From: an uncultured Oscillospiraceae bacterium
GTDB lineage: Bacteria; Bacillota; Clostridia; Oscillospirales; Oscillospiraceae
Length of the DNA: 32,000 nucleotides
Reading direction: 5' to 3'
NCBI GenBank assembly: GCA_900759385.1
Contig: CAAEUZ010000090.1
Coordinates: 12,672-44,671 of the forward strand
A model generated the notes under the pieces. The model was not told where the DNA came from, ran no database searches, and saw only the letters and a list, made by a program, of their open reading frames with translations. This document shows, piece after piece, positions 13,832 to 29,473 of this stretch. The position numbers and the translations under genes were made by a program. The first letter of the stretch is position 1. Each line of letters opens with the position of its first letter.

Positions 13832-16800
13832 TTATTTCACGTTCTCACAGAACCGCTGAAGCATCGCCGCCGCCTGGGCCCTGGTCGCAGTGCCCTGCGG
13901 CACCAGCGTGGACTCCGTTACACCGGTGATGACGCCCTCGCCGCAAGCCCACTGCAGTGCGGACACGGCGTACTCGCTCACAGCGTCAAAGTCCGTAAAG
14001 CTGAGTATGTTAGTGCTCTCGCCTATAGACACGTCATAGCCCTTGTACTGCGCGTAGCGGTACAGAATCGCCGCGAACTGCTCACGGGTCACATCAGCGC
14101 CTGGCGCAAACTCCGTGTCGCTCACGCCGTTGACGATGCCCTCGCTGGCCGCCCAGCGGACGGCCTCGGTGTACCACTCGCCCTCCGCCACGTCGGTGAA
14201 CGGCAGCAGGTAATTCACCGCCGGCCCGCCGTCCAGGCGCCAGAGGATGGTCACCAGCTGTGCGCGGGTGACGGTGCCGTCCGGCGCAAAGCGCGCATCG
14301 CTCACGCCGTCCATCAGGCCGTTCTCGTAAACGTACACCACGCAGTCATAGAACCAGTCGCCGCTGTCCGCGTCGTCGAACGGCTCCCAGCCGGCGTAGA
14401 CGGTTTTGTCTTTGTCCATGTAAATCTCGTCTATGCTGCCCGTGAAGTCCTCGTCCGGGTACCAGCCCGCGAAGTCAAAGCCGCTCCGCTCGCTCAGGTA
14501 CTCGGTCAAATCAACCGTGGTGCCGGCGGGCACGCGCAGCTTGTCCAGCTCGCTGCCGCCGCGCGGCTCAAAGGTCAGCGTGACATACCGCGTGCCGGTG
14601 CCGCCGCCGGGGTTCCACGGCCAGTCCGGGTCAGGGTCAGGATCGGGGTCGTCGGAGGCCACTTCGCTGTGGAAATAGAAGCCGGAATCGACCGATTTGG
14701 TCACATCCGTGCTCGTGCTGAAGGGCGAACCGTCGATTTCCGGCGCGGTCTGGGCGTCAACGCCCGACCAGGCCCTTATCTGCGTCTCCGCCGCAGGGTC
14801 GATTACAACGGTGCCGCCATTCAAATCCATGCTGCCGATCGCGCCGGTTATGGTCACCGTGCCGCCGGTAATCAGCACATCCGCGCTGCCGTTGGCGGAC
14901 GCGGCCATTGCCCCGGCAGAATTCGTGCCAGATGCCGTGTTGTGCAAAGCCAGGCCGTAGCTGGCCCGGGTATCCGGCGCACCGGTAAAGCTGCCGCCCT
15001 CGGCGGTAAGCTCTCCGCCATTGACGGTCAGCCCGGCTGCAGCGATGCCGACGCTGTTCGCGTTATCAGCGCCCGCGGCGGTCACTGTGCCGCTGTTGAC
15101 AATTACTCTGGACGCCGCCAAGATACCGACGCTGTTCTGCCCGGCCCCGCCGGCGGCATTCAGGCTGCCGGAACCGCTGACGGTTATATCGCCGCCGGCG
15201 TAGACGCCAAAGCTGAATGCTATTTCGTCCGTGCAGTCCGGCCCGGTGACGGTGTTCTCGCCGTTCAGCACTATTGTCAAACCGTTCTCACCGTAAATGG
15301 CCGCAGCTGCTTTGGTTTTATCATAACTATCATACTCAAACTTATGCCCGGCGGTGACGTTCACGCCGTTTAGCGTCAGCGCAGTGCCGTCCCATTTGAC
15401 GTTGTAGTTGCTCTCGTCGGCGCCATCGGCCGTGACGCTGCCGCTGCCGTCGTTAACAGCGTAAGCCGGCTCGCCATTAGCGCCGACGCTCAGTCCCACT
15501 CCGCCGACGTAGATGTCATAGTTGGTCGGAGGCTCGGGGCTGGGGCCTGACGCCCCTGTGCTGTGGAAGTATTTGGCGTCGGAGATGCGGTCGGTGATAT
15601 CGCCATCATCAGGAATGTCAATGCTTACCGTGTCGTTTGCGTTCTCTCCGGCCTCTACCGCGATCGCCAAGCCGTCCTCCGGGTTAATGACGACGCTGTT
15701 ATATGTGGCTATAGCAGCGTCTCTGCCCGTGGCCGTTACCTCGCCGCCGGAGATGGTGAGGTCATCTACATCGAGGCCGAAGCTCTCCTTACCCGTGCCT
15801 TTAGCCTCGCCTCCAGCAGCGTTGAGCATACCCCCGGAAATTTCAAGGTCCGCGTCGGCATAAATGCCGCTGCTGTAAGCGTAGCTGCCGCTCCCGGCAG
15901 CGGTAGCATCACCGCCAGTGGCCGTTACCTTGCCGCCGGAGATGGTGACATCAACGGCGTTAATACCCTCACTGCAGGCGTCTGCACCTTCGCCGTTGGC
16001 TGTGGCCGAGCCGCCCTCGGCCGTTACCTCACCGTCGGTGATTTTGATTTCAAAAGCATTAATACCATAGCTTTCCGCGTCATTGCTGCCGGACGTGGCC
16101 GTGCCGCCCTTGGCCGTTACCTCACCGTCGGTGATTTTGATTTCAAAAGCATTAATACCATAGCTTTTCGCGTCATGGCTGACGGACGTGGCCGTGCCGC
16201 CGGTGACGTTCAGTGTGCCGCCGCCGGAGATGGTGAACATGGTATTTACCTCACCGCGGATGCCGTAGCTCCAGCCATCCTGCGTGTTGCTCGGCCCGGT
16301 GACGGTGTTCTCGCCCACCAGCACAATGGAAACGCTGTCATCCGGCTCAGAACTGCTCAGCCACGTGTAGATAGCGGCGCTTTTATACGCGCCCTGCGTT
16401 ATTTTCGCGTTGTTCAGCGTCAGGGTGCTGCCGTCCCACTTGATGTTGTAGTTGTCGTCATCCGGCACAGTCTCAAGGAGGTGCACCTCGCCGTTGACCG
16501 TTGTCGCGTAAGCGGGAGCATCCTCGCTGCCGCTCAGGCCCACGCCGCCAACGTAGATTTCATGCTCGGGCAGAGTAATGGTGATTTTTAGGTATTTATC
16601 TGTACGATTTTCATAGTCACCTTCATCTTTGACTTCAATCGCACCCAAGCCGCCCTTATTCTCGCCAGCCATGACCTCAACTTCCGCGACCGTGGCGGCG
16701 GGATAAATTCTGTAGTTGTCATTGCCGGTGTTAACGCCAACGGCCTGAGTCCCGCCCCAAGCTGTGACCGTACCGCCGGATATGCTGACACCTGCATTAA

Positions 16801-17851
16801 AGCTGTTTCCACAGAGGCCGTAGCTTTTTGCGCCGTCCGTGACTTCGCCGCCCGTGGCCGTGACCGTGCCGCCCGTGGCCGTGACCTCGCCGCCGGATAT
16901 GCTGATACCGGTAGGCACACCTCCGCTGCTGCCGTAGATGCCGCAGCTGACAGCTTCGTCCGATGAGACCTTTCCGCCCGTGGCTGTGACGTTGCCGCCG
17001 GTGATGGTCACTCCGGTTTTGCCACTTTCATCTTTAACGGTTTTATATGTGCCGCAGATGCCGTAGCTGCTGCCGCCGGCCTCGCCGCCGATCGCTTCGA
17101 CCGTACCGCCGCTTATGTTGACGCTGCCATCATCTGCACAGATGCCGCAGCTGTCGCCGCCGGCCTCGCTGCCCGTCGCTTCGACCGTACCGCCGCTTAT
17201 GGTGACGATGCCTTCATATGCTTGGATGCCGTAGCTGCTGCCGCCGGCCTCGCCGCCGGTCGCGGTGACGTCGGCATCCTCAACTGTTACATCACCGCCC
17301 GCATAGATGCCATAGCTGGATTTATATTCGGCCTCGCCGCCGCGGGCGGTGACGGTGGCACCCTCAACTGTGACATTACCGCCCGCGTAAATGCCATAGC
17401 TGGCGTCATCTATGGCATTACCGCCGCTGACCGCCAAAGTTCCGCTGCCGCTTATGGTGATGTCGCCTTTAGATTCAATGCCGCGGCTGCTCCCGGGAGA
17501 GTTCGTTCTGGTAACAGTATTGGCGCCCATCAGCTCAATCTTCAGGTTGCCGGTGCAGGAGATGGCAGCTCTGCTATCAACACCCTCATCGTATATAATT
17601 TTCGCACCGTTGAGCGTCAGAGTCTCGCCGTCCCACCTGATGTTCCAAGGGTCTGTGTCGGGATTAATAGGGGTAATTGCACCCGTTTCCGCGTCCGTCG
17701 TGGCGTAGGCAGGATTGTCCTTGCTGCCCGGCACATAATATCCGCCGATTGAGATAGACACCCCATCCTCATCCGCCGCCAATGCAGCTGCGGGGAGCAG
17801 AGACACTATCAGGCACAGGCACATAAGCGCCGCGAAAAGTCGTTTTCTCAT
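13832..17851 (-). CDS. 1339-aa cell-surface protein: signal peptide, three super-modules of Gly-rich beta-helix-like repeats, a DP-repeat linker, a Listeria-Bacteroides (Flg_new) repeat, and three C-terminal SLH domains
   Basis: MRKRLFAALMCLCLIVSLLPAAALA signal peptide. There are many GGxAxxxSYGI repeats. The Flg_new-like segment is YVTLTFEPRGGSELD...FAGWY, and three FTD...W(Y)...GI..G SLH units follow. SD GGAGGAGGA upstream. Confidence 0.9.
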   Translation of the reverse strand: MRKRLFAALMCLCLIVSLLPAAALAADEDGVSISIGGYYVPGSKDNPAYATTDAETGAITPINPDTDPWNIRWDGETLTLNGAKIIYDEGVDSRAAISCTGNLKIELMGANTVTRTNSPGSSRGIESKGDITISGSGTLAVSGGNAIDDASYGIYAGGNVTVEGATVTARGGEAEYKSSYGIYAGGDVTVEDADVTATGGEAGGSSYGIQAYEGIVTISGGTVEATGSEAGGDSCGICADDGSVNISGGTVEAIGGEAGGSSYGICGTYKTVKDESGKTGVTITGGNVTATGGKVSSDEAVSCGIYGSSGGVPTGISISGGEVTATGGTVTATGGEVTDGAKSYGLCGNSFNAGVSISGGTVTAWGGTQAVGVNTGNDNYRIYPAATVAEVEVMAGENKGGLGAIEVKDEGDYENRTDKYLKITITLPEHEIYVGGVGLSGSEDAPAYATTVNGEVHLLETVPDDDNYNIKWDGSTLTLNNAKITQGAYKSAAIYTWLSSSEPDDSVSIVLVGENTVTGPSNTQDGWSYGIRGEVNTMFTISGGGTLNVTGGTATSVSHDAKSYGINAFEIKITDGEVTAKGGTATSGSNDAESYGINAFEIKITDGEVTAEGGSATANGEGADACSEGINAVDVTISGGKVTATGGDATAAGSGSYAYSSGIYADADLEISGGMLNAAGGEAKGTGKESFGLDVDDLTISGGEVTATGRDAAIATYNSVVINPEDGLAIAVEAGENANDTVSIDIPDDGDITDRISDAKYFHSTGASGPSPEPPTNYDIYVGGVGLSVGANGEPAYAVNDGSGSVTADGADESNYNVKWDGTALTLNGVNVTAGHKFEYDSYDKTKAAAAIYGENGLTIVLNGENTVTGPDCTDEIAFSFGVYAGGDITVSGSGSLNAAGGAGQNSVGILAASRVIVNSGTVTAAGADNANSVGIAAAGLTVNGGELTAEGGSFTGAPDTRASYGLALHNTASGTNSAGAMAASANGSADVLITGGTVTITGAIGSMDLNGGTVVIDPAAETQIRAWSGVDAQTAPEIDGSPFSTSTDVTKSVDSGFYFHSEVASDDPDPDPDPDWPWNPGGGTGTRYVTLTFEPRGGSELDKLRVPAGTTVDLTEYLSERSGFDFAGWYPDEDFTGSIDEIYMDKDKTVYAGWEPFDDADSGDWFYDCVVYVYENGLMDGVSDARFAPDGTVTRAQLVTILWRLDGGPAVNYLLPFTDVAEGEWYTEAVRWAASEGIVNGVSDTEFAPGADVTREQFAAILYRYAQYKGYDVSIGESTNILSFTDFDAVSEYAVSALQWACGEGVITGVTESTLVPQGTATRAQAAAMLQRFCENVK
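16021..16206. repeat. Two tandem 93-nt (31-codon) units inside the SLH-protein gene
   Basis: 16021..16113 and 16114..16206 are identical over the first ~55 nt and differ at only ~3 positions over ~88 nt. They encode ...SYGINAFEIKITDGEVTA(K/E)GG... Confidence 0.9.
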
Positions 17852-18284: not shown

Positions 18285-18325
18285 CCGGAAAAACCGCGGG
18301 CCCCTTTTGTGGCGCGGCCCGCGGA
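18285..18325 (-). terminator. Second minus-strand terminator downstream of the ancestral guaA position
   Basis: On the minus strand: CCGCGGGCC-loop-GGCCCGCGG followed by TTTTTCC. Confidence 0.6.
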
Positions 18326-18390: not shown

Positions 18391-18437
18391 AAATAAAAAA
18401 ATAACCGCAAGCCCCCAATAAAAAGGCTCGCGGTTAT
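18391..18437 (-). terminator. Orphaned rho-independent terminator, the presumed original guaA terminator
   Basis: On the minus strand: AUAACCGCGAGCC-11 nt-GGCUUGCGGUUAU (13 bp, one G-U) followed by TTTTTTTATTT. It begins 23 nt downstream of the displaced copy of the guaA 3' end. Confidence 0.8.
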
Positions 18438-18459
18438 CACGATTAATATCCACTTTTCG

Positions 18460-18472
18460 CTTATTCCCACTC
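18460..18472. repeat. attL core: displaced copy of the guaA 3' end (CTTATTCCCACTC)
   Basis: Identical to 28489..28501, which encodes ...EWE-stop of guaA on the minus strand. Confidence 0.8.
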
Positions 18473-18574
18473 AAGTCACGGCGCAGTATTCATCGTGAAT
18501 ATACGCACTTTTAATTCGCTTTTTACGCATTTAATCCACCTTATCTGTCTTATACACGACGTCCGCGGAATTTT

Positions 18575-18592
18575 TGTAGCCAAAGTGTAGCC
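18575..18592. repeat. Left arm-type repeat pair TGTAGCCAAAGTGTAGCC
   Basis: Two TGTAGCC copies phased by 11 bp. It matches 28401..28418 at 16 of 18 positions in the same orientation. Confidence 0.7.
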
Positions 18593-18643
18593 ACTCGAAT
18601 TCACCTCAAAACCAGCCGAAATTACTGCAAAGGAGTAAGTACC

Positions 18644-18820
18644 ATGAGCAAACTCATATCCCGCGAGTTTAACATTGACACCGCCTGCGTCGAGCTGCGC
18701 TATGCCGGTGGTAGCGGCATAAATATCTACTGTCCAGGTGTTGAGGACAGCTTCGACGCCACGCCGGCCATGCGCACTGAGATGGACCGGCTTATAGTAT
18801 GCAGGGATGGTACTGTATGA
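18644..18820 (+). CDS. 58-aa hypothetical protein at the island left end (MSKLISREFNIDTACVELRYAGGSGINIYCPGVEDSFDATPAMRTEMDRLIVCRDGTV)
   Basis: Hand translation; the ORF is below the track cut-off. AAAGGAG SD lies 8 nt before the ATG. Confidence 0.5.
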   Translation: MSKLISREFNIDTACVELRYAGGSGINIYCPGVEDSFDATPAMRTEMDRLIVCRDGTV

Positions 18821-18921
18821 TATGTTGGAGGGATGTCTCAGAGGAACATCAGGAATACACAGCTTAGATAGTTAGTCTCAGCGCAAGGGTTTTGCCCTTG
18901 TAAGGAGCCGCAGCGACGCAA

Positions 18922-18953
18922 AACATCCCGGATGCTCAGGCACCCGGGATGTT
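18922..18953 (-). terminator. Weak putative terminator after the LacI-family gene
   Basis: AACATCCCGG-12 nt-CCGGGATGTT followed on the minus strand by TTGCG. The T-run is short. Confidence 0.35.
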
Positions 18954-19005
18954 AAACGCACATACATGGTAACTATGTATAGAAGTGCACCCTTGCGCGC
19001 CGACG

Positions 19006-20004
19006 TCAAATCAGGTGGGTGCTTTTTCCTACAATCAGGCTCGGCAGGGTGGTAAAACTCTGAACTCGCAGCTCGGGCTTTTTCAGTTCCTGCAAAAGCT
19101 GCTTTGCGGCCACGCGACCCATGTCGCGCACGTCTATCTGCACCAGAGTCGGTTCGGGCACAATGAGCGGGCTGTACGGGTAACGGTCAAAAGTTATAAG
19201 CTGCACGCCGTCAGGGATACTCACTCCGAGCTCATGCGCCGCCTCGGCGAAGGCAAAGGCGAGCAGGTTGCTGCTGCACACCACGGCATCCGGCCTGTCC
19301 GGAGCCGTCAGCAGCTCCAAAGCGGCGGCGCGCCCAGATTGCAGCGTGCCGTCCGTGTGCTTTATCCAGTTCTCGCGATATTCGCAGCCATTCTCCTCCG
19401 CAGCGGCGCGGAAGCCCGCAAGACGCTCATTGGATATGTCATCCGTCTCCAGCGCGCCGATAAAAGCCACGTCACGGCAGCCGCACCCTGAGAGGTGCTC
19501 GACCGCGATACGCCCTCCGAGGGCGTTGTCCGTATCAACCCAGTTTATGCGCGTGTCGCTCGGATGGCCTATCACTATGTGGGGGAATTTCCGGGTGACA
19601 AGGAGCTGATGGATTGGCTTTGTCAGCGCGCCGCCATGGACTATGAGCCCATCTGCGGCTCGCGACAGCATTATCTGCTCCACATCCGTAATCGTCGCGT
19701 CCAGCAGCATCAGGCTGTACCCTTTTTTGCTCAGTGCCTCCTGAACCCCGCACATGATGTCAAAAAGGTGCGGATTGGTGTACGGCTCAAACTCTTCGAG
19801 CTTGGCCAAGAAAGCGATGCAGCGCGCGCTTTTCCTGGCAAGCCCAGCAGCGCGGCTGTTTGGGGCATACTCAAGCCGCCGCATTATTTCCTTTACCCTC
19901 AGCGTTGTCGCCTCGGATATACCGGGCATGTCGTTTATTACCCTGCTGACGGTGGAAATACTGACCCCGGCTTCACGGGCGACGTCTTTAATGGTAACTG
20001 GCAT
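19006..20004 (-). CDS. LacI-family transcriptional regulator
   Basis: N-terminal HTH MPVTIKDVAREAGVSISTVSRVIN with a periplasmic-binding-protein-like core. GGAGGG lies 6 nt before the ATG at 20004. The upstream ATG at 20010 abuts the SD. Confidence 0.9.
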   Translation of the reverse strand: MPVTIKDVAREAGVSISTVSRVINDMPGISEATTLRVKEIMRRLEYAPNSRAAGLARKSARCIAFLAKLEEFEPYTNPHLFDIMCGVQEALSKKGYSLMLLDATITDVEQIMLSRAADGLIVHGGALTKPIHQLLVTRKFPHIVIGHPSDTRINWVDTDNALGGRIAVEHLSGCGCRDVAFIGALETDDISNERLAGFRAAAEENGCEYRENWIKHTDGTLQSGRAAALELLTAPDRPDAVVCSSNLLAFAFAEAAHELGVSIPDGVQLITFDRYPYSPLIVPEPTLVQIDVRDMGRVAAKQLLQELKKPELRVQSFTTLPSLIVGKSTHLI

Positions 20005-20073
20005 TTTCATCCCTCCACAGCATTATAGTATAACGTTTTCATAAATAAATCAAGAGAAATATTGCAATTTCTA

Positions 20074-20102
20074 TTGACTTACACAAATATTGTAGTTATA
20101 CT
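20074..20102 (+). promoter_or_regulatory. Promoter of the sugar ABC / GH13 operon
   Basis: TTGACT, 17 nt, TATACT. Confidence 0.65.
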
Positions 20103-20158
20103 TCAAATCAAGAGGTGCGTATTGTACAAGTTTTTCGCTTATAGCAAGCATTATCTAA

Positions 20159-20172
20159 GTAAAACGTTTTAC
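20159..20172. promoter_or_regulatory. LacI/CcpA-type operator: perfect 14-bp palindrome GTAAAACGTTTTAC
   Basis: It lies between the -10 box and the SD of the binding-protein gene and fits the central-CG palindrome typical of LacI-family operators. A weaker copy, GTATAACGTTTTCA, sits at 20028..20041 next to the lacI-family gene start. Confidence 0.7.
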
Positions 20173-20200
20173 TATATTGATCAGAACGGAGGATGAAAAA

Positions 20201-21469
20201 ATGAAGAAATTCCTTGCCATACTGCTCAGCGCCCTGATGCTTATGACACTGCTCGCAGCCTGCGGAACCTCAAACGAACCCAGCGGTGAGAGCGCCGCGC
20301 CCGCATCGGAAGCGCCGGAGTCGGAAACGCCGGCTGAACCCGTAGAGCTTACAGTCTGGCACGACAACGACGAAGCCCTCATGCAGGCGATGGCCGACGC
20401 CGCAAACGCAAAGCTCGAGGGGACGGGTGTGACGCTTACCTTTGAAAAGCGCACCGGCCTTTCCGACCAGCTCAAGCTCTACGGCGGCGACGCGGCCAAC
20501 GGCCCCGACATGTACCTCTGGGCGCATGACAGTCTCGGCACATTTGTGGCGATGGACATTCTCGAACCGCTCACTAACCTCATTGACGAGAGTGTACTTG
20601 CCGACGACCTGCCGCTGACCGTTGAAGCCGGTCAGATAGACGGCACTCAGTACCTGCTCCCCGTGTACTTCGAGACTCTGCTCTTCCTCTACAACAAGGA
20701 CCTCTGGCAGGGCGACATACCCGCGACGACCGAGGAGCTATATGAGTACATGGTAGCAAACACAGATACCGCCGCCGGTACATACGCAGTCGTCAACCAG
20801 CACTCGACTTCGTATAACGTCTCGCCCTTTATAAACGGTTTCGGCGGGTACATACTCGACGATGATGGCAACCCGGGACTCAACGACCCCAAAACCATCG
20901 AGGCTGTGGAGTACAACAAGAAATTCGCCGACCTGGAAGCCGACGGAGATTACAACACTGTCACGACCCTCTTCAATGAGGGCAAGGCTCAGGCCATAAT
21001 CGGCGGGCCTTGGCTCGTCGCTGGGATTCGTGCCGCTGGCATTGACCTCGGTGTGGCGTCGCTCTCCGACATGACTCTTCCCAACGGAGAGCCGCTGGCC
21101 CCCTTCTCCGGCGTCCAGGGCATCGGCGTCATGAAAGTAGCCGCGGAGACGAAGGGCGACGCGATTGCGCTGGCTCTTGAGGCTCTCGCTTCGCCCGAGG
21201 TGGGCACCGCCCTCGCGAAGGCCGGTGGATGCGCCCCGGCGAACTCGCTCTCTTATGATGACCCGGACGTTGCTGCCGACGAGATAATAGCGGCGATTGA
21301 GCACACGGCAGATACCGCCCAACCCATGCCTAACGCTGCAGAGATGAACGTTATGTGGGGTCCGGTTGACAGCATGCTTGCCGCTGTCAACAAAAACGGC
21401 CAGGACGCGGCGTCTGCTGCTGAGGAAGCTCAGGCCGCGGCTCTTCAGGCCATAGCGGATATGCAGTGA
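20201..21469 (+). CDS. MalE-like extracellular solute-binding lipoprotein (maltodextrin-type ABC substrate-binding protein)
   Basis: Lipobox LLAAC, and the MalE-like DMYLWAHDSLG and GGPW motifs. GGAGGA SD lies 7 nt before the ATG at 20201. Confidence 0.85.
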   Translation: MKKFLAILLSALMLMTLLAACGTSNEPSGESAAPASEAPESETPAEPVELTVWHDNDEALMQAMADAANAKLEGTGVTLTFEKRTGLSDQLKLYGGDAANGPDMYLWAHDSLGTFVAMDILEPLTNLIDESVLADDLPLTVEAGQIDGTQYLLPVYFETLLFLYNKDLWQGDIPATTEELYEYMVANTDTAAGTYAVVNQHSTSYNVSPFINGFGGYILDDDGNPGLNDPKTIEAVEYNKKFADLEADGDYNTVTTLFNEGKAQAIIGGPWLVAGIRAAGIDLGVASLSDMTLPNGEPLAPFSGVQGIGVMKVAAETKGDAIALALEALASPEVGTALAKAGGCAPANSLSYDDPDVAADEIIAAIEHTADTAQPMPNAAEMNVMWGPVDSMLAAVNKNGQDAASAAEEAQAAALQAIADMQ

Positions 21470-21484
21470 GAATGGATGAATTAA

Positions 21485-21512
21485 GGGGCGGCGGCTTCGC
21501 CGCCCCATTTTT
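21485..21512 (+). terminator. Intra-operon hairpin (partial terminator / mRNA stabiliser) after the binding-protein gene
   Basis: GGGGCGGCG-gctt-CGCCGCCCC followed by ATTTTT. The next gene's SD (GGAGG) follows immediately. Confidence 0.65.
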
Positions 21513-21524
21513 GGAGGCCTTGCC

Positions 21525-22409
21525 ATGAGCCTTAGACGCAAATTGAAGCCCTGGTGCTGGTGCGTACCGGCGGTGCTGCTCATACTCATCATCATCGTCT
21601 TTCCCATCATCTACACCGGGTACATTTCACTTACCAATATGAACCTCTATCACTGGCAGGACTACGAGGTGATAGGGCTGGACAACTATGCCCGCGCGCT
21701 TTTCAAGTTTGACTCAGGATTTCTGTCCGCTCTTGGTACGACGCTGCTCTGGACCGTGCTCAACATGGTCATACAGCTTGCGCTGGGCTTTCTCATAGCC
21801 CTGGGGCTCAACGCACCCAAGCTGAAGCTCAGCCGATTGTACAAGACGCTACTGATGGTGCCCTGGGCGATGCCGGCGTATATTTCCATCCTGCTTTGGC
21901 GCGTAGGAATGTTCAACACCGAACTCGGTCTGCTAAACAAGTGGATCACGGCGTTGGGATTTGAAAAGGTGGACTTCCTCGCTACCAACGGCATAGCCTT
22001 TGTGTCCTGTCTCGTGCTCAATCTCTGGATGGCGCTGCCGTTTATGATTTCCACGATCGACGGAGCTCTGCAGAGCGTTGACCGCAGCTTGTATGAGAGC
22101 GCCACGCTCGACGGCGCAGGATTCTGGACACGCACATGGAAAATAACAATTCCAAGTATACGGCCCGTAATAGCCCCTGCCGCCGTTATGACGACGTTCA
22201 TAACTTTTAAACAGTTCGATATCATCTATCTGCTCACGCAGCAGCGCGGCTACATGACCGGCGCGACGCTTAACACAGTGATAACCTACGTCCACCAGAA
22301 CGCCTTCGTCTCGAACAATTACGGCCTGTCCAGCGCAGTGAGCATGCTGCTCTTCGTGATTATAATCATCTTCTCGCTGGCCACCAACCGAAGCCTGAGG
22401 GAGGACTGA
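21525..22409 (+). CDS. Carbohydrate ABC transporter permease (MalF-like)
   Basis: Six TM helices and the EAA loop YESATLDGAGFWTRTWKITIPSIRP. Confidence 0.9.
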   Translation: MSLRRKLKPWCWCVPAVLLILIIIVFPIIYTGYISLTNMNLYHWQDYEVIGLDNYARALFKFDSGFLSALGTTLLWTVLNMVIQLALGFLIALGLNAPKLKLSRLYKTLLMVPWAMPAYISILLWRVGMFNTELGLLNKWITALGFEKVDFLATNGIAFVSCLVLNLWMALPFMISTIDGALQSVDRSLYESATLDGAGFWTRTWKITIPSIRPVIAPAAVMTTFITFKQFDIIYLLTQQRGYMTGATLNTVITYVHQNAFVSNNYGLSSAVSMLLFVIIIIFSLATNRSLRED

Positions 22410-22411
22410 GC

Positions 22412-23254
22412 ATGAAACGTAAAACTAAAGAGCGCATAGGGTATATAGCCCTCAATATTGCCTTCATTCTCCTGTGCCTGGTCACGCTGATACCGATATA
22501 CTACGCGGTAAACGTGTCCTTCTCCGGGCCGGGCAGCTCGCTCTCCGGGGATTTTTCGTTTCTTCCAGAGAACCCCTCGCTGGAAAATTACCGCGCCATC
22601 CTTTTTGACGAGCCATTTTTGCTATGGCTCAAAAATTCGCTGCTGCTTAGCGTGGGTACAGTCGCCATAGCCATGCTCTGCGCCGTGACGGCGGCCTACG
22701 CCTGCTCTCGCTGGAGATTCAAAGGCCGCAGGCCACTGCTCATGGCTTTACTCGTACTCAACGCCTTCCCGCAGGTGCTCTCGCTCTTTGCATATTACCG
22801 CATACTGCGTCTTGCCGGGCTGCTGAATTCCCACATAGGGCTGATGCTCATATACGCGGGGAGCATGTGTGTCTTTGCCGTCTGGAACATGAAGGGATAC
22901 TTCGATTCCATACCGGTCGAAATAGAGGAGGCGTCAAAGATAGACGGTGCAAACGACGCTCAGATGATATGGCGTATCGTCCTGCCGCTTGCGAAACCGG
23001 CCATCGTCGTCACCTGTGTCATGGTGCTCATAACCGTCTGGAACGAGTACCTGTTTGCGACTACCTTCCTGCTGGACAGCGATTACTATTCGCTCTCGGC
23101 GGGGCTTTATCAGCTGCAAAGCAACGACTACACCCGCTCTTGGCCGCTGTTCACGGCGGCAAGCATACTCGCGTCGATACCGCTGCTGCTGATTTTCTTC
23201 AAGATACAAAAATACATGGTCTCCGGTCTCACCGCCGGCGGCGTGAAAGGATAA
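22412..23254 (+). CDS. Carbohydrate ABC transporter permease (MalG-like)
   Basis: EAA loop EEASKIDGANDAQMIWRIVLPLAKP. The start lies 2 nt after the preceding stop. Confidence 0.9.
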   Translation: MKRKTKERIGYIALNIAFILLCLVTLIPIYYAVNVSFSGPGSSLSGDFSFLPENPSLENYRAILFDEPFLLWLKNSLLLSVGTVAIAMLCAVTAAYACSRWRFKGRRPLLMALLVLNAFPQVLSLFAYYRILRLAGLLNSHIGLMLIYAGSMCVFAVWNMKGYFDSIPVEIEEASKIDGANDAQMIWRIVLPLAKPAIVVTCVMVLITVWNEYLFATTFLLDSDYYSLSAGLYQLQSNDYTRSWPLFTAASILASIPLLLIFFKIQKYMVSGLTAGGVKG

Positions 23255-23256
23255 AC

Positions 23257-24927
23257 ATGAAAAAGGAAGCGATATTTCACCGGCCAATGAGCGAATACGC
23301 CTTTGGCCTGGACGAGGACACCACAGTATTCCGGCTGCGCAGCGCTCCCGGTGACGTCGAGCGCTGCACGCTCTGGTACGGCGACACTTCAAGTCCGGAG
23401 ACACCTGTGCCTGTATTTCATGCGGAAATGGCGCTCAAGTATCACGGTGAAAACTGCGACTGGTGGGAGACCGAGCTGCGCGGTACTTTTCACCGACTCT
23501 ATTACTACTTTGAGCTCACGGGCGACGAGACGCTGTATTACTCCGGTGAGGTATTTTTCACTCAGCCAAGTGCAGAGCGCGCTGAATACTTCAAGTTCCC
23601 ATTCAACCACCGCGCGGATATCGCCCGCGTCCCTGATTGGGTGTCGGATGCCGTGGTGTACAATATTTTCCCCGACAGCTTTGCAAGTTCCCGGCGCGCG
23701 ATTGCCGGAAGTGGGACCGAAAAACATACCAGCGGCGCTCTTTCCCGCTCGCGTCTCGGCGGCACGATAAACGGCATACGCGAAAATCTCGATTACATAT
23801 CCGCTCTCGGAGCCAACTGTATCTATCTGAATCCCATCTTTGCCGCCGGGCAGTATCACAAGTACGACACGATAGACTACCTACACATTGACCCCTGCTT
23901 AGGTACGGACGAGGATTTCCGCGCTCTTGTGGACAAGTGCCACGCACGCGGGATACGCGTCATACTTGACGGCGTGTTCAACCACTGCGGCGCACAGTTT
24001 TTTGCCTTCCGCGACGTGCTCGAAAGGCAGGAGCGCAGCCGCTACGCAAGCTGGTTTTACCGTCTGCAGTTTCCCGTTGCATACCCCGAAGCAGGCGAAC
24101 GGCCAAATTATGAATGCTTCTGTTATGAACGGCTTATGCCCAAGCTTGATACGTCAAACCCAGAAGTATGCGACTACCTCTGCGCCGTCGGTGAGCACTG
24201 GCTGCGCGAATTTGACACAGACGGATGGCGTCTCGACGTAGCAGACGAGCCGAACGACGGATTCTGGAGGGAGTTTCGCCGGCGCTGCAAATCCGTCAAG
24301 AGCGACGCGCTGCTCATAGGCGAAGTTTGGGGCAGCGCAAGGCATTGGCTAAGCGGAGATATGCTCGATTCCACCATGAACTACGACTTCCGCAATCACT
24401 GCCGGCACTTTTTCGCCGAGGGCAGCATCGACGCGCGCACCTTCGCCGGACGTTGCTCGGATATGCTCATGCGCTATAAACGTCAGATTGCCGCAGCACA
24501 GCTGAACCTGCTTGACAGCCACGATGTCAGTCGCTTCCTTAATCTATGCAGAGGCGATGTGCGGCGCTTGAAGCTGGCAGTTATGTTCATGTGCTGCTTT
24601 CCGGGTATGCCCTGTGTATTCTATGGCGATGAGCTTGGCGTCTCCGGCATAGACGAATTGGATTTCCGGCGCGCCATGCCCTGGCAGAGCGGAGACGCGG
24701 AGCTGCTGGAGTTTTACCGCGACGCGATATCCCTGCGACGAAATCACCCCGCGCTTCGTCACGGCGAGCTGCGCTTTCTCCGCGCCGAGCCGGGTGAACG
24801 CGTGCTTGTGTTTGAGCGAAAATTGCCAAGTGATAAGCTGATAGTAGCTATCAATTCAGCAGAAACCGAGTATAATTATTCCGGTCATAAGATCCCGCCG
24901 CTCTCATGGGTAATAGTAGAGCAATAA
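23257..24927 (+). CDS. Intracellular GH13 alpha-glucosidase of the neopullulanase / cyclomaltodextrinase / maltogenic amylase type
   Basis: The four GH13 regions are present: DGVFNH, GWRLDVADE, GEVW and LLDSHD. There is an N-terminal IFHRP...FRLR domain and no signal peptide. The true start is the ATG at 23257 (MKKEAIFHRP, AAAGGA SD). The 130 extra codons of ORF 22867.. overlap the malG-like gene. Confidence 0.9.
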   Translation: MKKEAIFHRPMSEYAFGLDEDTTVFRLRSAPGDVERCTLWYGDTSSPETPVPVFHAEMALKYHGENCDWWETELRGTFHRLYYYFELTGDETLYYSGEVFFTQPSAERAEYFKFPFNHRADIARVPDWVSDAVVYNIFPDSFASSRRAIAGSGTEKHTSGALSRSRLGGTINGIRENLDYISALGANCIYLNPIFAAGQYHKYDTIDYLHIDPCLGTDEDFRALVDKCHARGIRVILDGVFNHCGAQFFAFRDVLERQERSRYASWFYRLQFPVAYPEAGERPNYECFCYERLMPKLDTSNPEVCDYLCAVGEHWLREFDTDGWRLDVADEPNDGFWREFRRRCKSVKSDALLIGEVWGSARHWLSGDMLDSTMNYDFRNHCRHFFAEGSIDARTFAGRCSDMLMRYKRQIAAAQLNLLDSHDVSRFLNLCRGDVRRLKLAVMFMCCFPGMPCVFYGDELGVSGIDELDFRRAMPWQSGDAELLEFYRDAISLRRNHPALRHGELRFLRAEPGERVLVFERKLPSDKLIVAINSAETEYNYSGHKIPPLSWVIVEQ

Positions 24928-24942
24928 AACCTCGCAAGTGGG

Positions 24943-24962
24943 GCGAGTGGCTAGCCACTCGC
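24943..24962. repeat. Perfect 20-bp palindrome GCGAGTGGCTAGCCACTCGC, which shares TAGCCACTCG with the left arm region
   Basis: Read directly from the sequence. It lies at the junction between the sugar cassette and the int/rep module. Confidence 0.6.
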
Positions 24963-25005
24963 GAAAAACACCTTGTTGGGATTTTATCCCAAACCCTAAA
25001 AACTC

Positions 25006-25037
25006 AGAACAGCCCGACCGTGCGGTCGGGCTGTTCT
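25006..25037. terminator. Bidirectional terminator between the convergent GH13 and RepA-like genes
   Basis: AGAACAGCCCGACC-gtgc-GGTCGGGCTGTTCT. It is followed by TTTC on the + strand and TGAGTTTTTAGGG on the minus strand. Confidence 0.75.
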
Positions 25038-25076
25038 TTCGGCGGCGCACCCTTACGGGCGCTTATTTTATCCTCC

Positions 25077-25140
25077 GCGACGGTTGCAACGGTTGCGACG
25101 GTTAAATTGGCAGTGCTCAGGCTATCGTTGCAACCGTCGC
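25077..25140. repeat. 15-bp inverted repeat (GCGACGGTTGCAACG / CGTTGCAACCGTCGC) plus ACGGTTGC direct repeats spanning the 3' end of the RepA-like gene
   Basis: Read directly from the sequence. The arms are at 25077..25091 and 25126..25140. ACGGTTGC occurs twice in tandem, then GACGGTT. Confidence 0.7.
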
Positions 25141-26223
25141 AAGCGTCGCGCTCTCCGATTCCGCGACTACAACAGCGCCGGTCAGCCTGATGCGCCGTCC
25201 CTCGTGCCGAGCCAGGCTCTCGTATTTCACATTATACTCGTCGAGCAGCCGTCCCGCATTTACGTTCAAATGCCGCGTCAGCCGGTTGACCGCCATGTCC
25301 GAGCCCAGCGCGAGCGCCAGCTCCGAGGGGCTTCCCTCCCAATGACCACCGCGCTCTTCTACAAGTCTTCTCACAGAATCGAGCACCGCGTCGGGTGGCT
25401 TCTTCCACAACTCTGTCTCGGCGCTCTCAAGGTTCCACACAAGGCTGTCACGCTCTTTCACAATATGCAGCCGCTGGTCGGGCTGGTCGCGCCCGACAAC
25501 ATCCAGCGTCGCCGTGAGGTCGGTGCGCTTTTCCTTGCGCATCAGCAGCGCTCCGTCAGCGCAGCCCAGCAGCCCGTTTGTCCCCGATAGCATCTCGAAG
25601 CAGTCTCCTGCGGCCTGCTTTCTCGTGTGATGTACCGCCAGCACGCAGAGCTTGTGCTTGTCCGCAAAAGATTTCAATCGCGTCACGAGTTCATAGTCGC
25701 TGCCGTAGCTGTAGTCCCTCGACGCCTCCCTCACCTTTTGCAGCGTGTCGAGCACGATGAGCTTGGTGTCCGGGTGCTCGCGGACGAAGTATTCAAGCTG
25801 CCCGTCAAGGCCGTCGGAAAGCAGCTTGGCTTGGACAGAGAAGAACACGCTGCCTTCAGCGGCCACGCCGAACATCCGCGACATTCGCCCCTGCAAACGA
25901 CCGTAGTCGTCTTCCAGTGCGAGATAGAGCACGGAACCCTGATGTACGTCGTAACCCCACAGCGGCTGGCCTGTGCCGACGTGATACGCTATCTGCGCAA
26001 CGAGAAACGACTTGCCTATTTTCGGCGCACCAGCGAGAAAGTACGCGCCCGCGTACAGCAGACCGTCTATTATAGACGGCCTGCTTTCGTACACGTTGTC
26101 AAAGAGTTCATTCAACGATACAGTATGCAGATAATCCGGGTTGTTCATCTGTCTCATCTTCCTGAGCAACCTGTTCATATCCATTTCTTCAGATTTACAT
26201 TCGCTCATTTGACTCACCGCCAA
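25117..26223 (-). CDS. RepA-like / RecA-fold AAA ATPase (AAA_25-type replication helicase of small mobile elements) with a C-terminal winged-helix-like region
   Basis: Walker A GAPKIGKSF, Walker B LIVLDTL, and VLAVHHTRK. The start is either the TTG at 26223 or the ATG at 26208. Either overlaps the end of the upstream HTH gene. Confidence 0.8.
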   Translation of the reverse strand: MAVSQMSECKSEEMDMNRLLRKMRQMNNPDYLHTVSLNELFDNVYESRPSIIDGLLYAGAYFLAGAPKIGKSFLVAQIAYHVGTGQPLWGYDVHQGSVLYLALEDDYGRLQGRMSRMFGVAAEGSVFFSVQAKLLSDGLDGQLEYFVREHPDTKLIVLDTLQKVREASRDYSYGSDYELVTRLKSFADKHKLCVLAVHHTRKQAAGDCFEMLSGTNGLLGCADGALLMRKEKRTDLTATLDVVGRDQPDQRLHIVKERDSLVWNLESAETELWKKPPDAVLDSVRRLVEERGGHWEGSPSELALALGSDMAVNRLTRHLNVNAGRLLDEYNVKYESLARHEGRRIRLTGAVVVAESESATLATVATIA

Positions 26224-26398
26224 TCTGCATCCCGTAAAACTTCTTCTGAAAGTATTGAACCGGACACTTGCCAGAAACCGTTATGTATCCCATCCCTTTT
26301 AACTCCCGATTCATGTCCCTGACGATTTGATACGCCTTACTCCTGCTTACTCCCATGATTTCTGCCACATCGGCTGCCGTGATAAACTGCGCTCTCAT
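26195..26398 (-). CDS. 67-aa helix-turn-helix protein, excisionase-like (HTH_17/MerR-type)
   Basis: MRAQFITAADVAEIMGVSRSKAYQIVRDMNREL. GGAGG lies 5 nt before the ATG at 26398. The longer ORF start at 26614 would run through the promoter region. Confidence 0.75.
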   Translation of the reverse strand: MRAQFITAADVAEIMGVSRSKAYQIVRDMNRELKGMGYITVSGKCPVQYFQKKFYGMQIGGESNERM

Positions 26399-26482
26399 TT
26401 TGCCTCCATTATTTAATTTGTGCATCTCTAATGCGCTCATTTCCACCAGTCTTTCATAATGCGCACTTTTAATACGTCTTGC

Positions 26483-26511
26483 ATTATACGCTTTATGCGC
26501 ATTCTTGTCAA
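26483..26511 (-). promoter_or_regulatory. Consensus sigma-A promoter driving the xis-like/repA-like genes
   Basis: On the minus strand: TTGACA, 17 nt, TATAAT. The palindrome ATGCGCAT sits inside the spacer. Confidence 0.7.
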
Positions 26512-26534
26512 TATCATTTTTGAGAAATACGTAC

Positions 26535-26563
26535 TTGCAATTCGCTTTTGTTTCTGCTATACT
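26535..26563 (+). promoter_or_regulatory. Promoter of the XRE-regulator/integrase genes
   Basis: TTGCAA, 17 nt, TATACT. GAGGTGA SD precedes the ATG at 26583. Confidence 0.6.
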
Positions 26564-26582
26564 CATCTCGAGGTGAATTTGA

Positions 26583-27260
26583 ATGGCACATTTCGATGAA
26601 TCAGATGATTTCAACTATGAGGCACAAAGCTCTGAGTCATACGACGCGAAGGAAATCGGTCGCCGAATAAAACTGGCTCGGAAGGCAAGACGTATAAGCC
26701 AGAAAGAGCTGGCTGAAATGCTCAACCGCTCACTCAGGACAATCCAGAAATATGAGAGCGGTGATATTGAAGTTTCAGTCGCGGCACTTGTTTCCGTCTG
26801 CCAAGCGCTGCGCGTCCCGCTTTCGTATCTGGTGGGTCTTGGGACACGCAAGGCTCTTATCACGAGTCTTGCCGACGTAATGGACTTCCTGTTCATGCTT
26901 GAAAAAGTGAAAGAACTCCACTTTGCAATCGAAGTTGAAAAGCCACCAAAGGACAGGGACTGGAGATGCTCCGTCTCTTTCAGCGGCACAGGTACGAACG
27001 CCAAACACAATGCCGCGCTCTGCCTTCTGCTTGAACAGTGGCAAGACCAACGCGAAAAACTCGCCGCGGACAAAATTACGGATAAGGACTATTCCGACTG
27101 GAAAGACCAGACCATATCCTACTGCTCCTTTGAGCGTATTGAACCTGTCGGGAGCAAAAATTCTGATCCCATGGGGCGTCCGTCCGATGAAGCATCCGAA
27201 GAAACAAATGTTCTCTCCGGGGATGAAATGGCAGCGTTGCGTAATCTGCTGAGTAAATAA
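26583..27260 (+). CDS. XRE-family HTH regulator (cI/Stl-like repressor candidate) with a ~140-aa C-terminal domain of unknown function
   Basis: HTH_3 core IGRRIKLARKARRISQKELAEMLNRSLRTIQKYESGD. It is divergent from the xis/rep genes and lies directly upstream of int. Confidence 0.85.
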   Translation: MAHFDESDDFNYEAQSSESYDAKEIGRRIKLARKARRISQKELAEMLNRSLRTIQKYESGDIEVSVAALVSVCQALRVPLSYLVGLGTRKALITSLADVMDFLFMLEKVKELHFAIEVEKPPKDRDWRCSVSFSGTGTNAKHNAALCLLLEQWQDQREKLAADKITDKDYSDWKDQTISYCSFERIEPVGSKNSDPMGRPSDEASEETNVLSGDEMAALRNLLSK

Positions 27261-27303
27261 GCGAATTGAATACAGACCGTGACTTGGGAGAAAGGAGCGA
27301 TTC

Positions 27304-28379
27304 GTGTCAGTAACGAAGGACAGTAAAACAGACAAGTGGATGGCTCAGCTCCGTGTCAAGGATTGGACGGGCAAGGTCATCCACAAGAAAAAGCGCGGCT
27401 TCGCGACTAAGCGGGAGGCGCTGCAATGGGAAAGGGACTTCATAGCTCAGGCAAGCGCCAGCCTCGGCATGACGTTCAGGGACTTCATTGAGCTGTACAA
27501 ACAGGACATGGAAAAGCGGCTCAAGCCCTCGACCATCGCGGGCAAGAAATGGCTCATAGATTTGAAGATAACCCCTTTCTTCGGCAAGATACCTCTCAAT
27601 GAAATTAAGCCCACAGACATACGCCGTTGGCAAAATGGCCTGAGCAGCCATCGCGATGGGAACGGGAAACCATACTCCCAGACCTATCTGCGTTGTATCA
27701 ACAATCAGCTCACAGCGATTTTCAACTATGCGGTAAAATACTACGGCCTGAAAGAAAACCCCTGTCACAAGGCTGGGAGCATGGGTAAGAAAAACGCCGA
27801 CGAATGTTGTTCTGGACAAAGGACGAATTCTCTCAGTTCATAGCTGCACTCAAAGAGCGCCCCGCGTCCTACGCAGCGTTTATGACCCTGTACTACACGG
27901 GAATGCGCGAAGGAGAACTGCTGGCGCTGACTCCTGCCGACATAGACTTTGAAAAATCCATCATCATAAACAAGAGCTACCAGCGGCTCGGCAAAGAGGA
28001 CGTAATCTCAACGCCAAAGACCGAAAAGAGCAGACGCACAGTGACCATACCCTCCGTTCTTAGCGACTGTCTCAGGGAGTATATAGGCAAGTGCTATGGG
28101 CTTCAACCGACTGACCGGCTGTTCCCGTACACGAAAAGCTTCCTGTATCGCGAGATGGAATACGCCTGCAAGACCAGCGGCGTCAAGCGCATCCGCGTAC
28201 ACGACATTCGTCACAGCCACGCGGGCCTGCTTGTAGAAATGGGCTGTTCCCCGCTGCTCATAGCCGAGCGGCTCGGCCATGAGCGCGTCCAGACTACAAT
28301 GGAAACCTACAGCCATCTCTACCCCAACAAACAGGCCGAAGTAGCACGTCAGCTCGACGGCATATTCGCCGCAGGCTGA
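27304..28379 (+). pseudogene. int: Tyrosine recombinase / integrase (Tn916/phage-integrase type), split by a 1-nt frameshift near 27804
   Basis: ORF 27304..27843 carries the N-terminal SAM-like/core-binding part. ORF 27804..28379 carries the catalytic domain (R in YTGMREGEL, HDIRHSHA, Y in ETYSHLY). The two frames join as ...KKNADE|MLFWTKDEF if one A is restored in GAATG. Confidence 0.85.
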
Positions 28380-28400
28380 TGGCTACAACATCCTGCAAAG

Positions 28401-28418
28401 TGTAGCCAATTTGTAGCC
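28401..28418. repeat. Right arm-type repeat pair TGTAGCCAATTTGTAGCC, plus an inverted GGCTACA at 28381..28387
   Basis: It has the same 11-bp phasing and orientation as 18575..18592. It lies between the int stop and the attR core. Confidence 0.7.
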
Positions 28419-28420
28419 GC

Positions 28421-28469
28421 TAAAAATAGCAAAATCCCTGAAATGCCTGTAAGTACAGGCATTTCAGGG
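28421..28469 (-). terminator. Element-borne terminator now serving guaA
   Basis: CCCTGAAATGCCTGT-4 nt loop-ACAGGCATTTCAGGG (15-bp perfect stem). On the minus strand it is followed by ATTTTGCTATTTTTA, starting 20 nt after the guaA stop. Confidence 0.75.
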
Positions 28470-28488
28470 ATGTAAGGTATATTAAATT

Positions 28489-28501
28489 CTTATTCCCACT
28501 C
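28489..28501. repeat. attR core (CTTATTCCCACTC), containing the guaA stop codon
   Basis: Identical to 18460..18472. Confidence 0.8.
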
Positions 28502-29473
28502 GATCGTTGCGGGCGGCTTGGGGGTCAGGTCGTAGAGGACGCGGTTTACGCCGGGGACTTCGTTTGTTATGCGCTCGGTCAGGCGCTTCATCAGCGGCCA
28601 GGGGAGTTCTTCGACCTCGGCGGTCATGGCGTCGCGGGTGTTCACGGCACGGATGACGACCGGCCAGGCGTCCACGCGCTTGCCGTCGCGCACGCCGGTG
28701 CTGGTCACGGGCGGGACAACGGTGAAGTACTGCCAGACCGTCTTGTCCAGGCCCTCGCGGGCGAACTCCTCGCGCAGGATGGCGTCGCTCTCGCGCACGG
28801 CCTCGAGCCTGTCGCGGGTGATGGCACCGACGCAGCGCACGCCCAGGCCGGGGCCCGGGAAAGGCTGGCGGTAGACCATGGAGTCAGGCAGGCCCAGGGC
28901 CTTGCCGACCACGCGCACCTCGTCCTTATAGAGGAACTTGAGAGGCTCGACCAGCTCAAAGTGCATATCCTCCGGCAGACCGCCGACGTTGTGGTGGCTC
29001 TTTACAGGCCCGGACTCCACGATGTCAGGATAGATGGTGCCCTGGGCGAGGAAGCCGATGCCCTCCAGCTTGCGGGCCTCCTCCTCAAAGATGCGGATAA
29101 ACTCCTCGCCGATAATCTTGCGTTTGCGCTCCGGGTCGGCCACGCCGGCGAGCCTGTCCAGGAAGCGGTCAACCGCATCCACATATGTAAGGTTCGCGCC
29201 CAGCTGGTTGCGGAACACCTCTATGACCTGCTCGCTCTCGCCCTTGCGCATCAGCCCGTGGTTGACGTGCACGCACTCGAGCTGCCTGCCCACCGCCTTG
29301 ATGAGCAGCGCCGCCACGACGGATGAATCCACGCCGCCGGAGAGCGCGAGCAGGACTTTGCCCCCGCCGATCTGCGCGCGCAGCGCGGCGGTCTGCTCGG
29401 CAATGAACGCCTCGGCCAGCTCGGGAGTGGTGATACGCTCCATTTCAGGTCTTTTGTTTGATGAATTAGTCAT
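28490..29473 (-). CDS. guaA: GMP synthase, ATP-pyrophosphatase (PP-loop) plus dimerisation domains only; no glutamine amidotransferase domain
   Basis: PP-loop [11 protein letters not shown], the C-terminal ...KPPATIEWE, and 327 aa in total. GGAGG lies 5 nt before the ATG at 29473 (MTNSSNK). Confidence 0.9.

Follow-up and report, generated by a model that had tools for sequence, protein, structure and literature searches.

A probable guaA-targeting integrative element, decayed to a fixed island with a sugar-import cassette, in an uncultured Oscillospiraceae bacterium

The 3′ end of guaA is a target of integrative mobilizable elements (IMEs) in streptococci and elsewhere, and both the tandem accretion of such elements and their decay to cis-mobilizable elements (CIMEs) have been described (PMC5357655, PMC5704250). 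According to a figure legend, guaA also serves one group of tyrosine integrases as integration site, in a tree that contains the integrases of the Staphylococcus aureus pathogenicity islands (SaPIs) SaPIbov1 and SaPIbov2 (PMC5341023, Fig. 4 legend). A locus of this type occurs in an uncultured Oscillospiraceae bacterium, in a 32,000-nucleotide stretch of DNA (contig CAAEUZ010000090.1 of assembly GCA_900759385.1, positions 12,672 to 44,671), which was analysed as a whole and is referred to here as the window. The window contains an island of about 10 kb (18473–28488) that abuts the end of guaA and carries an integrase module and a sugar-import operon. An original prediction, made from the letters of the window, had interpreted the island as an insertion at the guaA stop codon and had named this site as an established target of streptococcal IMEs, as the literature cited above bears out. 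Our analysis indicates that 18473–28488 is very probably an integrated member of a large guaA-targeting IME family of gut Clostridia, which has decayed to a fixed island.

Island ends at the 3′ end of guaA

The two ends of the island are marked by a direct repeat. The 13-mer CTTATTCCCACTC, which covers the end of guaA and had been noted to recur perfectly, is present in the window as two exact copies only, at 18460–18472 and 28489–28501, and none of 100 dinucleotide-preserving shuffles produced it. The proximal attachment (att) core, at 28489–28501, is the reverse complement of GAG TGG GAA TAA G, corresponding to the final three codons of guaA, its stop codon, and one further base, and TTATTCCCACTC is kept at this position in four related elements. 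The distal core, at 18460–18472, lies at a junction that is the same in about 40 conspecific contigs. A search allowing three mismatches found no extra copy of the 13-mer above chance level between 18473 and 28488, and an internal degenerate core splitting the island into two tandem elements was rejected on this ground.

Inside each core lies a set of arm-type integrase sites. The 18-bp unit TGTAGCCAANNTGTAGCC, which consists of two TGTAGCC repeats in 11-bp phasing, has exactly two copies in the window, at 18575 and 28401, with none expected and none found in 100 shuffles. The left arm sites (18575–18592, plus strand) are perfectly kept in a related contig (L104; related contigs are referred to by L numbers) within a region that is only 75% identical overall. 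The right arm sites (28381–28418, plus strand) comprise the two TGTAGCC repeats at 28401–28418 and an inverted GGCTACA at 28381–28387, and all three are kept in five family members. The original prediction had recognized the paired units inside both ends, and the inverted copy had gone unnoticed; when it is included, the ends of the island account for five of the seven TGTAGCC copies in the window.

Terminators lie near both ends of the island. On the guaA strand, the distal core is followed by a 23-nt spacer and then by an orphaned intrinsic terminator (18400–18438, minus strand), a 17-bp hairpin with a subsequent T-run (−25.7 kcal/mol, z = −5.8), so that the predicted order of guaA, 23-nt spacer, and terminator would be recreated by joining the flanks. 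Because unoccupied guaA genes of other Clostridia have a terminator about 20 nt or less past the stop codon, we infer that the hairpin at 18400–18438 is the original guaA terminator. A second terminator, proposed at 18285–18325, proved to be no better than shuffled sequence (z = −1.6). The insertion has not left guaA without a terminator: an island-supplied hairpin (28434–28471, minus strand; z = −9.2), which lies directly after the integrase gene and 17 nt past the guaA stop codon, now ends guaA in place of the host hairpin, and its stem is preserved by compensatory changes in relatives.

The island also differs from its surroundings in composition, as had been expected from a few lines of sequence. 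The G+C content is 54.2% in the island, compared with 61.1% in the left flank and 62.3% in the right flank, and the G+C content at third codon positions is likewise lower in the island genes (0.53–0.73) than in the flanking genes (0.73–0.86).

The target gene itself (28490–29473, minus strand) encodes the stand-alone, 327-aa ATP-pyrophosphatase part of GMP synthase. It starts at the ATG at 29473, six bases after a GGAGG sequence, and an exact look-up of the 327-aa product succeeded; the mechanical 331-aa open reading frame (ORF) with a TTG start has no exact record and was rejected in favour of this start. The protein matches positions 197–512 of the full-length model, that is, the ATP-pyrophosphatase and dimerisation part, and it has no glutamine amidotransferase domain and no adjoining gene for one. 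GuaA is 325–327 aa long in congeners, and the gene is a fused, 511-aa one in the species of L107; split GMP synthases are usually described for archaea. The closest named relatives of the host belong to Candidatus Scatomorpha, with guaA 93–94% identical.

The integrase module, its relatives, and the occupied guaA site

The gene at the guaA-proximal end of the island (27304–28379, plus strand) is a tyrosine integrase pseudogene. The prediction of an integrase at this end holds for its position and for its tyrosine integrase domains, but a 1-bp deletion in an A-run at 27803–27804 (GAAATG to GAATG) breaks the gene into two ORFs of 179 aa and 191 aa, as seen by alignment to the intact 359-aa copies found in L002, L101, L010, and L115. 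The 191-aa fragment is on record from 23 contigs, and the frameshift is therefore an allele and not a read error. The integrase has N-terminal Arm-DNA-bind_4 (PF14657) and SAM_3 (PF14659) domains and a C-terminal catalytic domain (PF00589), and the motifs GMREGE, HDIRHSH, and SHLY are readable in its translation; an arm-binding domain, a SAM-like core-binding domain, and the catalytic R..HxxR..Y residues, which together define the arm-binding (lambda-type) tyrosine integrases, are thus all present.

The integrase gene is preceded by further genes of a mobility module. A 225-aa XRE-family regulator (26583–27260, plus strand) is encoded upstream of the integrase and divergently from a small, 67-aa helix-turn-helix protein (26195–26398, minus strand), which resembles the excisionase (Xis) of the integrative and conjugative element (ICE) ICEBs1 (NF047858, E = 2.8e-15, below the curated cut-off; phrog_989). 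Next to it lies the gene for an AAA_25 ATPase (25117–26223, minus strand; PF13481, 6e-28), which resembles primase/helicase-type replication proteins (phrog_239, DNA primase/helicase, 9e-17). The module ends in a tail (24931–25116) that contains a terminator at 25006–25037 on the minus strand and separates the AAA_25 gene from the sugar genes.

More than 7,500 proteins are related to the intact integrase at E ≤ 1e-20. The original prediction had proposed examining whether integrase homologues also sit beside guaA, and this is the case: on long contigs of three other species, integrases 72–79% identical to that of the window are convergent with guaA and about 115–140 bp away from it. The genes before these three integrases are, in order, those for an XRE regulator, a 64–78-aa protein, an AAA_25 protein, a small ORF, a Mob_Pre (MobV) relaxase, and restriction–modification or other cargo. 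Because they carry a MobV relaxase beside the XRE, Xis-like, and AAA_25 genes, these guaA-convergent relatives in other Clostridia are IMEs. An alignment of five members from the integrase stop codon to guaA shows that the inverted GGCTACA, the TGTAGCC-N4-TGTAGCC unit, the hairpin, and TTATTCCCACTC are all conserved. Together with the tandem borders and the identities between lineages described below, these homologues support the prediction that an arm-binding tyrosine integrase inserted the island at the 3′ end of guaA.

The succession of integrase, XRE, Xis-like, and helicase-like genes would also fit a phage satellite of the SaPI or phage-inducible chromosomal island (PICI) type, moved by a helper phage and not by conjugation. 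The original prediction had also named the guaA 3′ end as an established site of SaPI-type islands. The AAA_25 protein matches primase/helicase PHROGs, although no primase domain and no ori repeats were seen. The listing of guaA among the integration sites in the tree with the SaPIbov1/2 integrases (PMC5341023, Fig. 4 legend) agrees with such a satellite. However, this origin is very unlikely, as no terS, capsid-remodelling or redirection, interference (ppi), or phage structural gene is present among the island ORFs, the close integrase relatives have Mob_Pre or MobA_MobL relaxases, which belong to conjugative mobilization, and the Xis-like protein matches the ICEBs1 excisionase. A prophage or PICI identity was rejected, since the island has no packaging or structural gene.

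The borders of the island are defined independently by tandem neighbours. In L002, guaA is followed by a different element (A), by the 13-mer, and then by the integrase end of a window-type element with an intact integrase; because this border adjoins element A there instead of guaA, the right border of the island is confirmed. In L101–L103, 14 nt of host-like sequence separate the window-type left end and core from element D, whose arms are two copies of TTGATAGC; because this border adjoins element D instead of the host terminator, the left border is confirmed as well. Element A of L002 has two GGCAAC arms, a 357-aa integrase 52% identical to that of the window, NikA-like and AAA_25 proteins, an intact DUF6061 gene, and a restriction–modification gene. 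Element C, found in L005 and L007–L009, has two TTGATAC arms, and the guaA stop codon is changed to TGA there. In congeners with a 90–94% identical GuaA, the site is taken by an A-type IME or its att remnant. The end of guaA is a hotspot at which elements of at least four families accumulate in tandem; they have a common core and private, 11-bp-phased arm repeats. The private arms on a common core might stop co-resident elements from excising each other, and cross-recognition between tandem elements is doubtful because their arm repeats differ.

The arm pairs lie about 75–110 bp from the core and read GGCTACA in the window element, GGCAAC in A, TTGATAC in C, and TTGATAGC in D; they are located at about 11060–11085 and 19610–19640 in L002, at about 11045–11070 in L005, and at about 10800–10825 in L101. 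Other cargo is found at the same site: GH65, GH125, TetR, and LacI genes follow an A-type right end in L138 (6985–12984), and a GH5-like enzyme and a 776-aa Listeria–Bacteroides-repeat protein are encoded behind a window-type (B-type) left end in L102 (14–4213). Glycan-utilisation genes seem to have entered the genus repeatedly at the guaA site. Contigs L007, L008, L009, L018, L019, L121, and L122 stop about 50–550 bp from the att cores, after guaA or inside DUF6061, and strain-level variation and repeated element ends seem to break assemblies at this locus.

Several results weigh against integration of a mobilizable element. The original prediction had expected relatives with an empty site, but the virtual empty junction, AACGATYGAGTGGGAATAAGCRAAAAGTGGATATTAATCG, was found in none of more than 100 contigs from five congeneric lineages, and one metagenome scan for it gave 0 matches; all contigs with this guaA or with the 108-aa flanking gene hold an element there. 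The pre-insertion state is inferred and not observed. The junction of an excised circle, which had also been proposed as a check (attP, GTGACTTGAGTGGGAATAAGAATTTAATATACC), was absent from the metagenome hits and from every fetched locus. No Mob_Pre, MobA_MobL, or other relaxase domain was detected in any island ORF, and no origin of transfer (oriT) was identified, an oriT not being recognisable by the domain and sequence searches used.

The lack of an empty site is what would be expected if there had been no insertion and the repeats had arisen by chance or by local duplication in an ancestral gene order. This is, however, extremely improbable: neither repeat was produced in any of 100 shuffles, base composition changes where the island meets its flanks, guaA is the specific target of the integrase family, and the tandem neighbours in L002 and L101 define both borders. 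The original prediction had named two outcomes as speaking against insertion, namely relatives that all carry the sugar block without flanking repeats and relatives that never show the empty site, and formally both were encountered. Insertion is not refuted by them: the sugar block is present in every conspecific contig, but flanking repeats accompany it, and the site is never vacant, since one or more elements from at least four families always occupy it. A scan of a genome collection listed matches of at most 79% identity, among which the species' own representative and its nearest neighbours do not appear; among the matches listed, several have a terminator immediately after guaA, and in 5 of 28 a related integrase is encoded no more than 4 kb away.

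The sugar cassette and the decay of the island

The integrated element is a composite: the island combines a 6.3-kb sugar cassette (about 18639–24930, plus strand) with a backbone of about 3.8 kb, which is made up of the two arms and the AAA_25, xis, XRE, and int genes. This composite structure, the integrase pseudogene, and the failure to find a relaxase go beyond the original prediction. The cassette begins with a DUF6061 gene (18644–18820, plus strand) that is truncated to 58 aa by a 17-bp deletion; the intact form of 82 aa is found in L101 and L104, and L001 has an additional stop codon. It is followed by genes for a LacI-family regulator (19006–20010, minus strand), assigned by domain match, a sugar ABC importer (20177–23254, plus strand) with a MalE/GanS-like binding protein (20177–21469) and two permeases (21525–22409 and 22412–23254), and an intracellular GH13 enzyme (23260–24927, plus strand) that matches the maltodextrin glucosidase/cyclomaltodextrinase families. 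A LacI regulator, a MalE-like binding protein, two MalF/G-like permeases, and an intracellular GH13, the components by which maltodextrin-type operons are recognized, are all present, and an ATPase gene is absent from the cassette. The substrate is probably a maltodextrin or cyclodextrin-type alpha-glucan, as judged from family matches that lie below the equivalog cut-offs.

The separability of the two parts is seen in L104–L106, whose integrase is 84% identical to that of the window. In these contigs, the left arm (window 18465–18638) is joined straight to the AAA_25 side (window 24971–28470) in a compact element of about 3.8 kb, with ACTGCAGAG running uninterrupted into CAATAAAACC. The sugar block (window 24927–18632, 88.5% identical) is inverted and lies immediately beyond the integrase-side core, and it is followed by a core-like sequence and then by an A-type left end.

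This arrangement also bears on the possibility that only the integrase module of about 3.6 kb (about 24931–28488) was mobile and that the sugar operon and the DUF6061 remnant were an older resident, chromosomal or from an earlier element, so that the 10-kb unit never moved as a whole. Backbone and cassette are indeed separate neighbouring units in L104, all conspecific contigs examined carry the cassette but differ in their mobility genes, and the G+C content of the cassette differs somewhat from that of the backbone (55.5% vs 52.5%). Nevertheless, a mobile integrase module alone is unlikely: B-type arm repeats and the second core are found on the far side of the cassette (18460–18592), backbone and cassette are arranged alike in L101, with 94–97% identity, beside an 88% identical guaA, and the direct junction of the left arm to the AAA_25 side in L104 shows that the left arm belongs to the backbone.

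In the window and in L104, the cassette ends at the same two points, and in both contexts it sits in a core-like GAG/TGG–(C/G)AATAA site, where the dash marks the junction. Written on the guaA strand, the junctions in the window are ACTGCAAAG joined to GAGTAAGTACC-ATG on the left and AATAGTAGAG joined to CAATAAAACC on the right, and those in L104 are GAGCGAGTGG joined to GAGTAAATTCC-ATG on the left and AATAGCGGAG joined to GAATAATG on the right, compared with a canonical core of GAGTGG–GAATAAG. The final two GH13 codons and the stop codon are supplied by the target sequence. Given the polarity of the core, a flip of this kind would be expected if the cassette had recombined as a circle with an oppositely oriented site. 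These junctions suggest, with close to an even chance, that the cassette (about 18639–24930) is a separable, integrase-less unit moved by site-specific recombination. Somewhat more tentatively, it may hop between the shared guaA core of the array and the GAG–CAATAA site in the backbone, borrowing the integrases of the array and having its GH13 end rebuilt from the target. If this is true, then, with four integrase lineages on one core and private arms, the guaA end would act as a modular platform at which gut Clostridia exchange glycan-utilisation genes.

Other observations count against such movement. Cassette mobility rests on two arrangements only, whose junctions resemble the core only loosely, and a third rearranged copy, in L119, breaks at a different point (window 24822). 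The junction of a cassette circle (AATAGYRGAG-GAGTAART) occurs neither among the metagenome hits nor in any of the loci examined, and the arrangements fit movement into the backbone as well as movement out of it. L119 was rejected as a third context for the cassette ends, since homology stops inside GH13 at window 24822 in an unrelated rearrangement. The truncated GH13 gene adjoins a 622-aa ORF there (59–1927), in which a MobA/MobL relaxase domain is joined to the C-terminal half of an A-type-like integrase and which looks like a product of rearrangement within the array.

The island has remained far more similar between lineages than the gene it targets. L101 contains the whole composite in the same arrangement, and its guaA is 88.3% identical in DNA, compared with 97.2% for the sugar block and about 94.7% for the backbone; in L127, guaA is 87.7% identical and the sugar block 99.1% identical. 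Horizontal movement of the island between lineages is supported by this comparison of identities, because the island is far more identical across lineages than their guaA genes are. L003 is 100% identical to the window, probably comes from the same source, and was not counted as independent support.

All conspecific contigs examined have the sugar block and the distal junction, and the mobility genes vary by strain. These genes are intact in L010 and L115 and frameshifted in the window and L113. In L001, L114, L116–L118, and L120, window 25458–27685 is replaced by about 1.2 kb of unrelated sequence; in L017 and L127, the sequence beyond window 25048 is replaced by genes for a TetR regulator and an old-yellow-enzyme-type oxidoreductase; and in L119 the break lies inside GH13. 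This is the pattern expected for an island with a selected cargo and eroding mobility functions. In the first of these alleles, the replaced part comprises the AAA_25 N-terminus, xis, XRE, and the integrase N-terminus, and the replacing sequence (L001 11793–13018) encodes 206–297-aa and 107-aa proteins that have no Pfam match.

By its predicted gene content, the window copy is no longer autonomous and is a CIME-like fixed island, because the integrase is frameshifted, the MobV relaxase of the relatives is missing, and DUF6061 is truncated. Direct att repeats at a specific target and the absence of a complete conjugation module, no type IV secretion system or coupling-protein gene being present among the nine genes of the island, are features that it has in common with IMEs; a working integration and excision module and a relaxase or oriT, which IMEs possess, are not found in it. 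It would agree with a CIME or decayed island in two respects, attL and attR being kept and the recombination and transfer genes being lost or predicted to be inactive.

The anatomy of the locus and its relatives point to the following mechanism. An arm-binding tyrosine integrase, together with the small Xis-like protein, would have recombined attP with the last codons of guaA at the core GAGTGGGAATAAG, and this recombination would have duplicated the 13-bp core, cut the host guaA terminator off at the distal end of the island, and given guaA a terminator brought in by the element. The cassette would have been placed at the core-like secondary site GAG–CAATAA in the backbone, most likely by the same kind of site-specific recombination. 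The frameshift, the loss of the relaxase, and the truncation of DUF6061 would then have led to a CIME-like fixed island, in which the LacI-regulated ABC importer and the intracellular GH13 would be the retained and selected part.

A gene next to the island (window 13832–17851, minus strand) encodes a giant SLH/beta-helix surface protein of 1307–1442 aa across strains (L012–L019, L113–L122). It contains internal repeats, for which BLAST gives multiple off-diagonal matches at 73–87% identity, and looks like a surface protein of the hypervariable repeat-array type.

Comparison with known integrative elements

The locus shows a carbohydrate-utilisation operon entering an abundant, uncultured lineage of human-gut Clostridia and becoming fixed there, carried by a guaA-targeting integrative element whose mobility genes are eroding differently between strains. 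Precise att cores and arm motifs could allow such islands to be delimited automatically in Oscillospiraceae-like metagenome-assembled genomes, in which contigs often break at this locus. No new mechanistic question is raised, as guaA integration, accretion, and decay to CIMEs are already established.

The closest described systems are the streptococcal Tyr_3 IMEs together with ATE-1, GIsul2, and the Brucella IncP island (PMC5357655, PMC5704250). Like the window island, these have a tyrosine integrase at the target-proximal end, integrate into the guaA 3′ end with restoration of the reading frame, measure about 10 kb, carry adaptive cargo, and frequently accrete in tandem. In contrast to them, the window copy has no relaxase and a frameshifted integrase, and its host belongs to the uncultured gut Clostridia; the likeness to the streptococcal Tyr_3 elements is one of description and not of sequence comparison.

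A similar correspondence exists with the ICESt1/CIME model of Streptococcus thermophilus, as cited in PMC5704250 (Pavlovic 2004, Bellanger 2011). There, too, att sites are kept while recombination and transfer genes are lost or broken, and other elements integrate at the flanking att sites to build tandem arrays; the sugar cassette of L104, which lies between core-like sites and has no integrase of its own, conforms to this model. The window cassette differs from it in being nested in the backbone at a secondary core-like site and in opposite orientation.

The regulatory end of the island resembles the left-end module of ICEBs1 (int, immR/immA, xis), in that the genes for the integrase and the XRE-type regulator point the same way and a small Xis gene diverges from them, the window protein matching the excisionase model with a score below the curated cut-off. 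ICEBs1 targets a tRNA-Leu gene. The window island differs from ICEBs1 in this target, guaA, and in having no ImmA protease gene and no conjugation genes. The SaPIs and PICIs have a similar regulatory layout and a helicase/primase-like gene in common with the island; in contrast to them, the island has no packaging or interference genes, and its relatives have relaxases. The window island belongs to a known class and is not a new kind of system, and its nested and possibly mobile sugar cassette is a modestly novel detail within that class.

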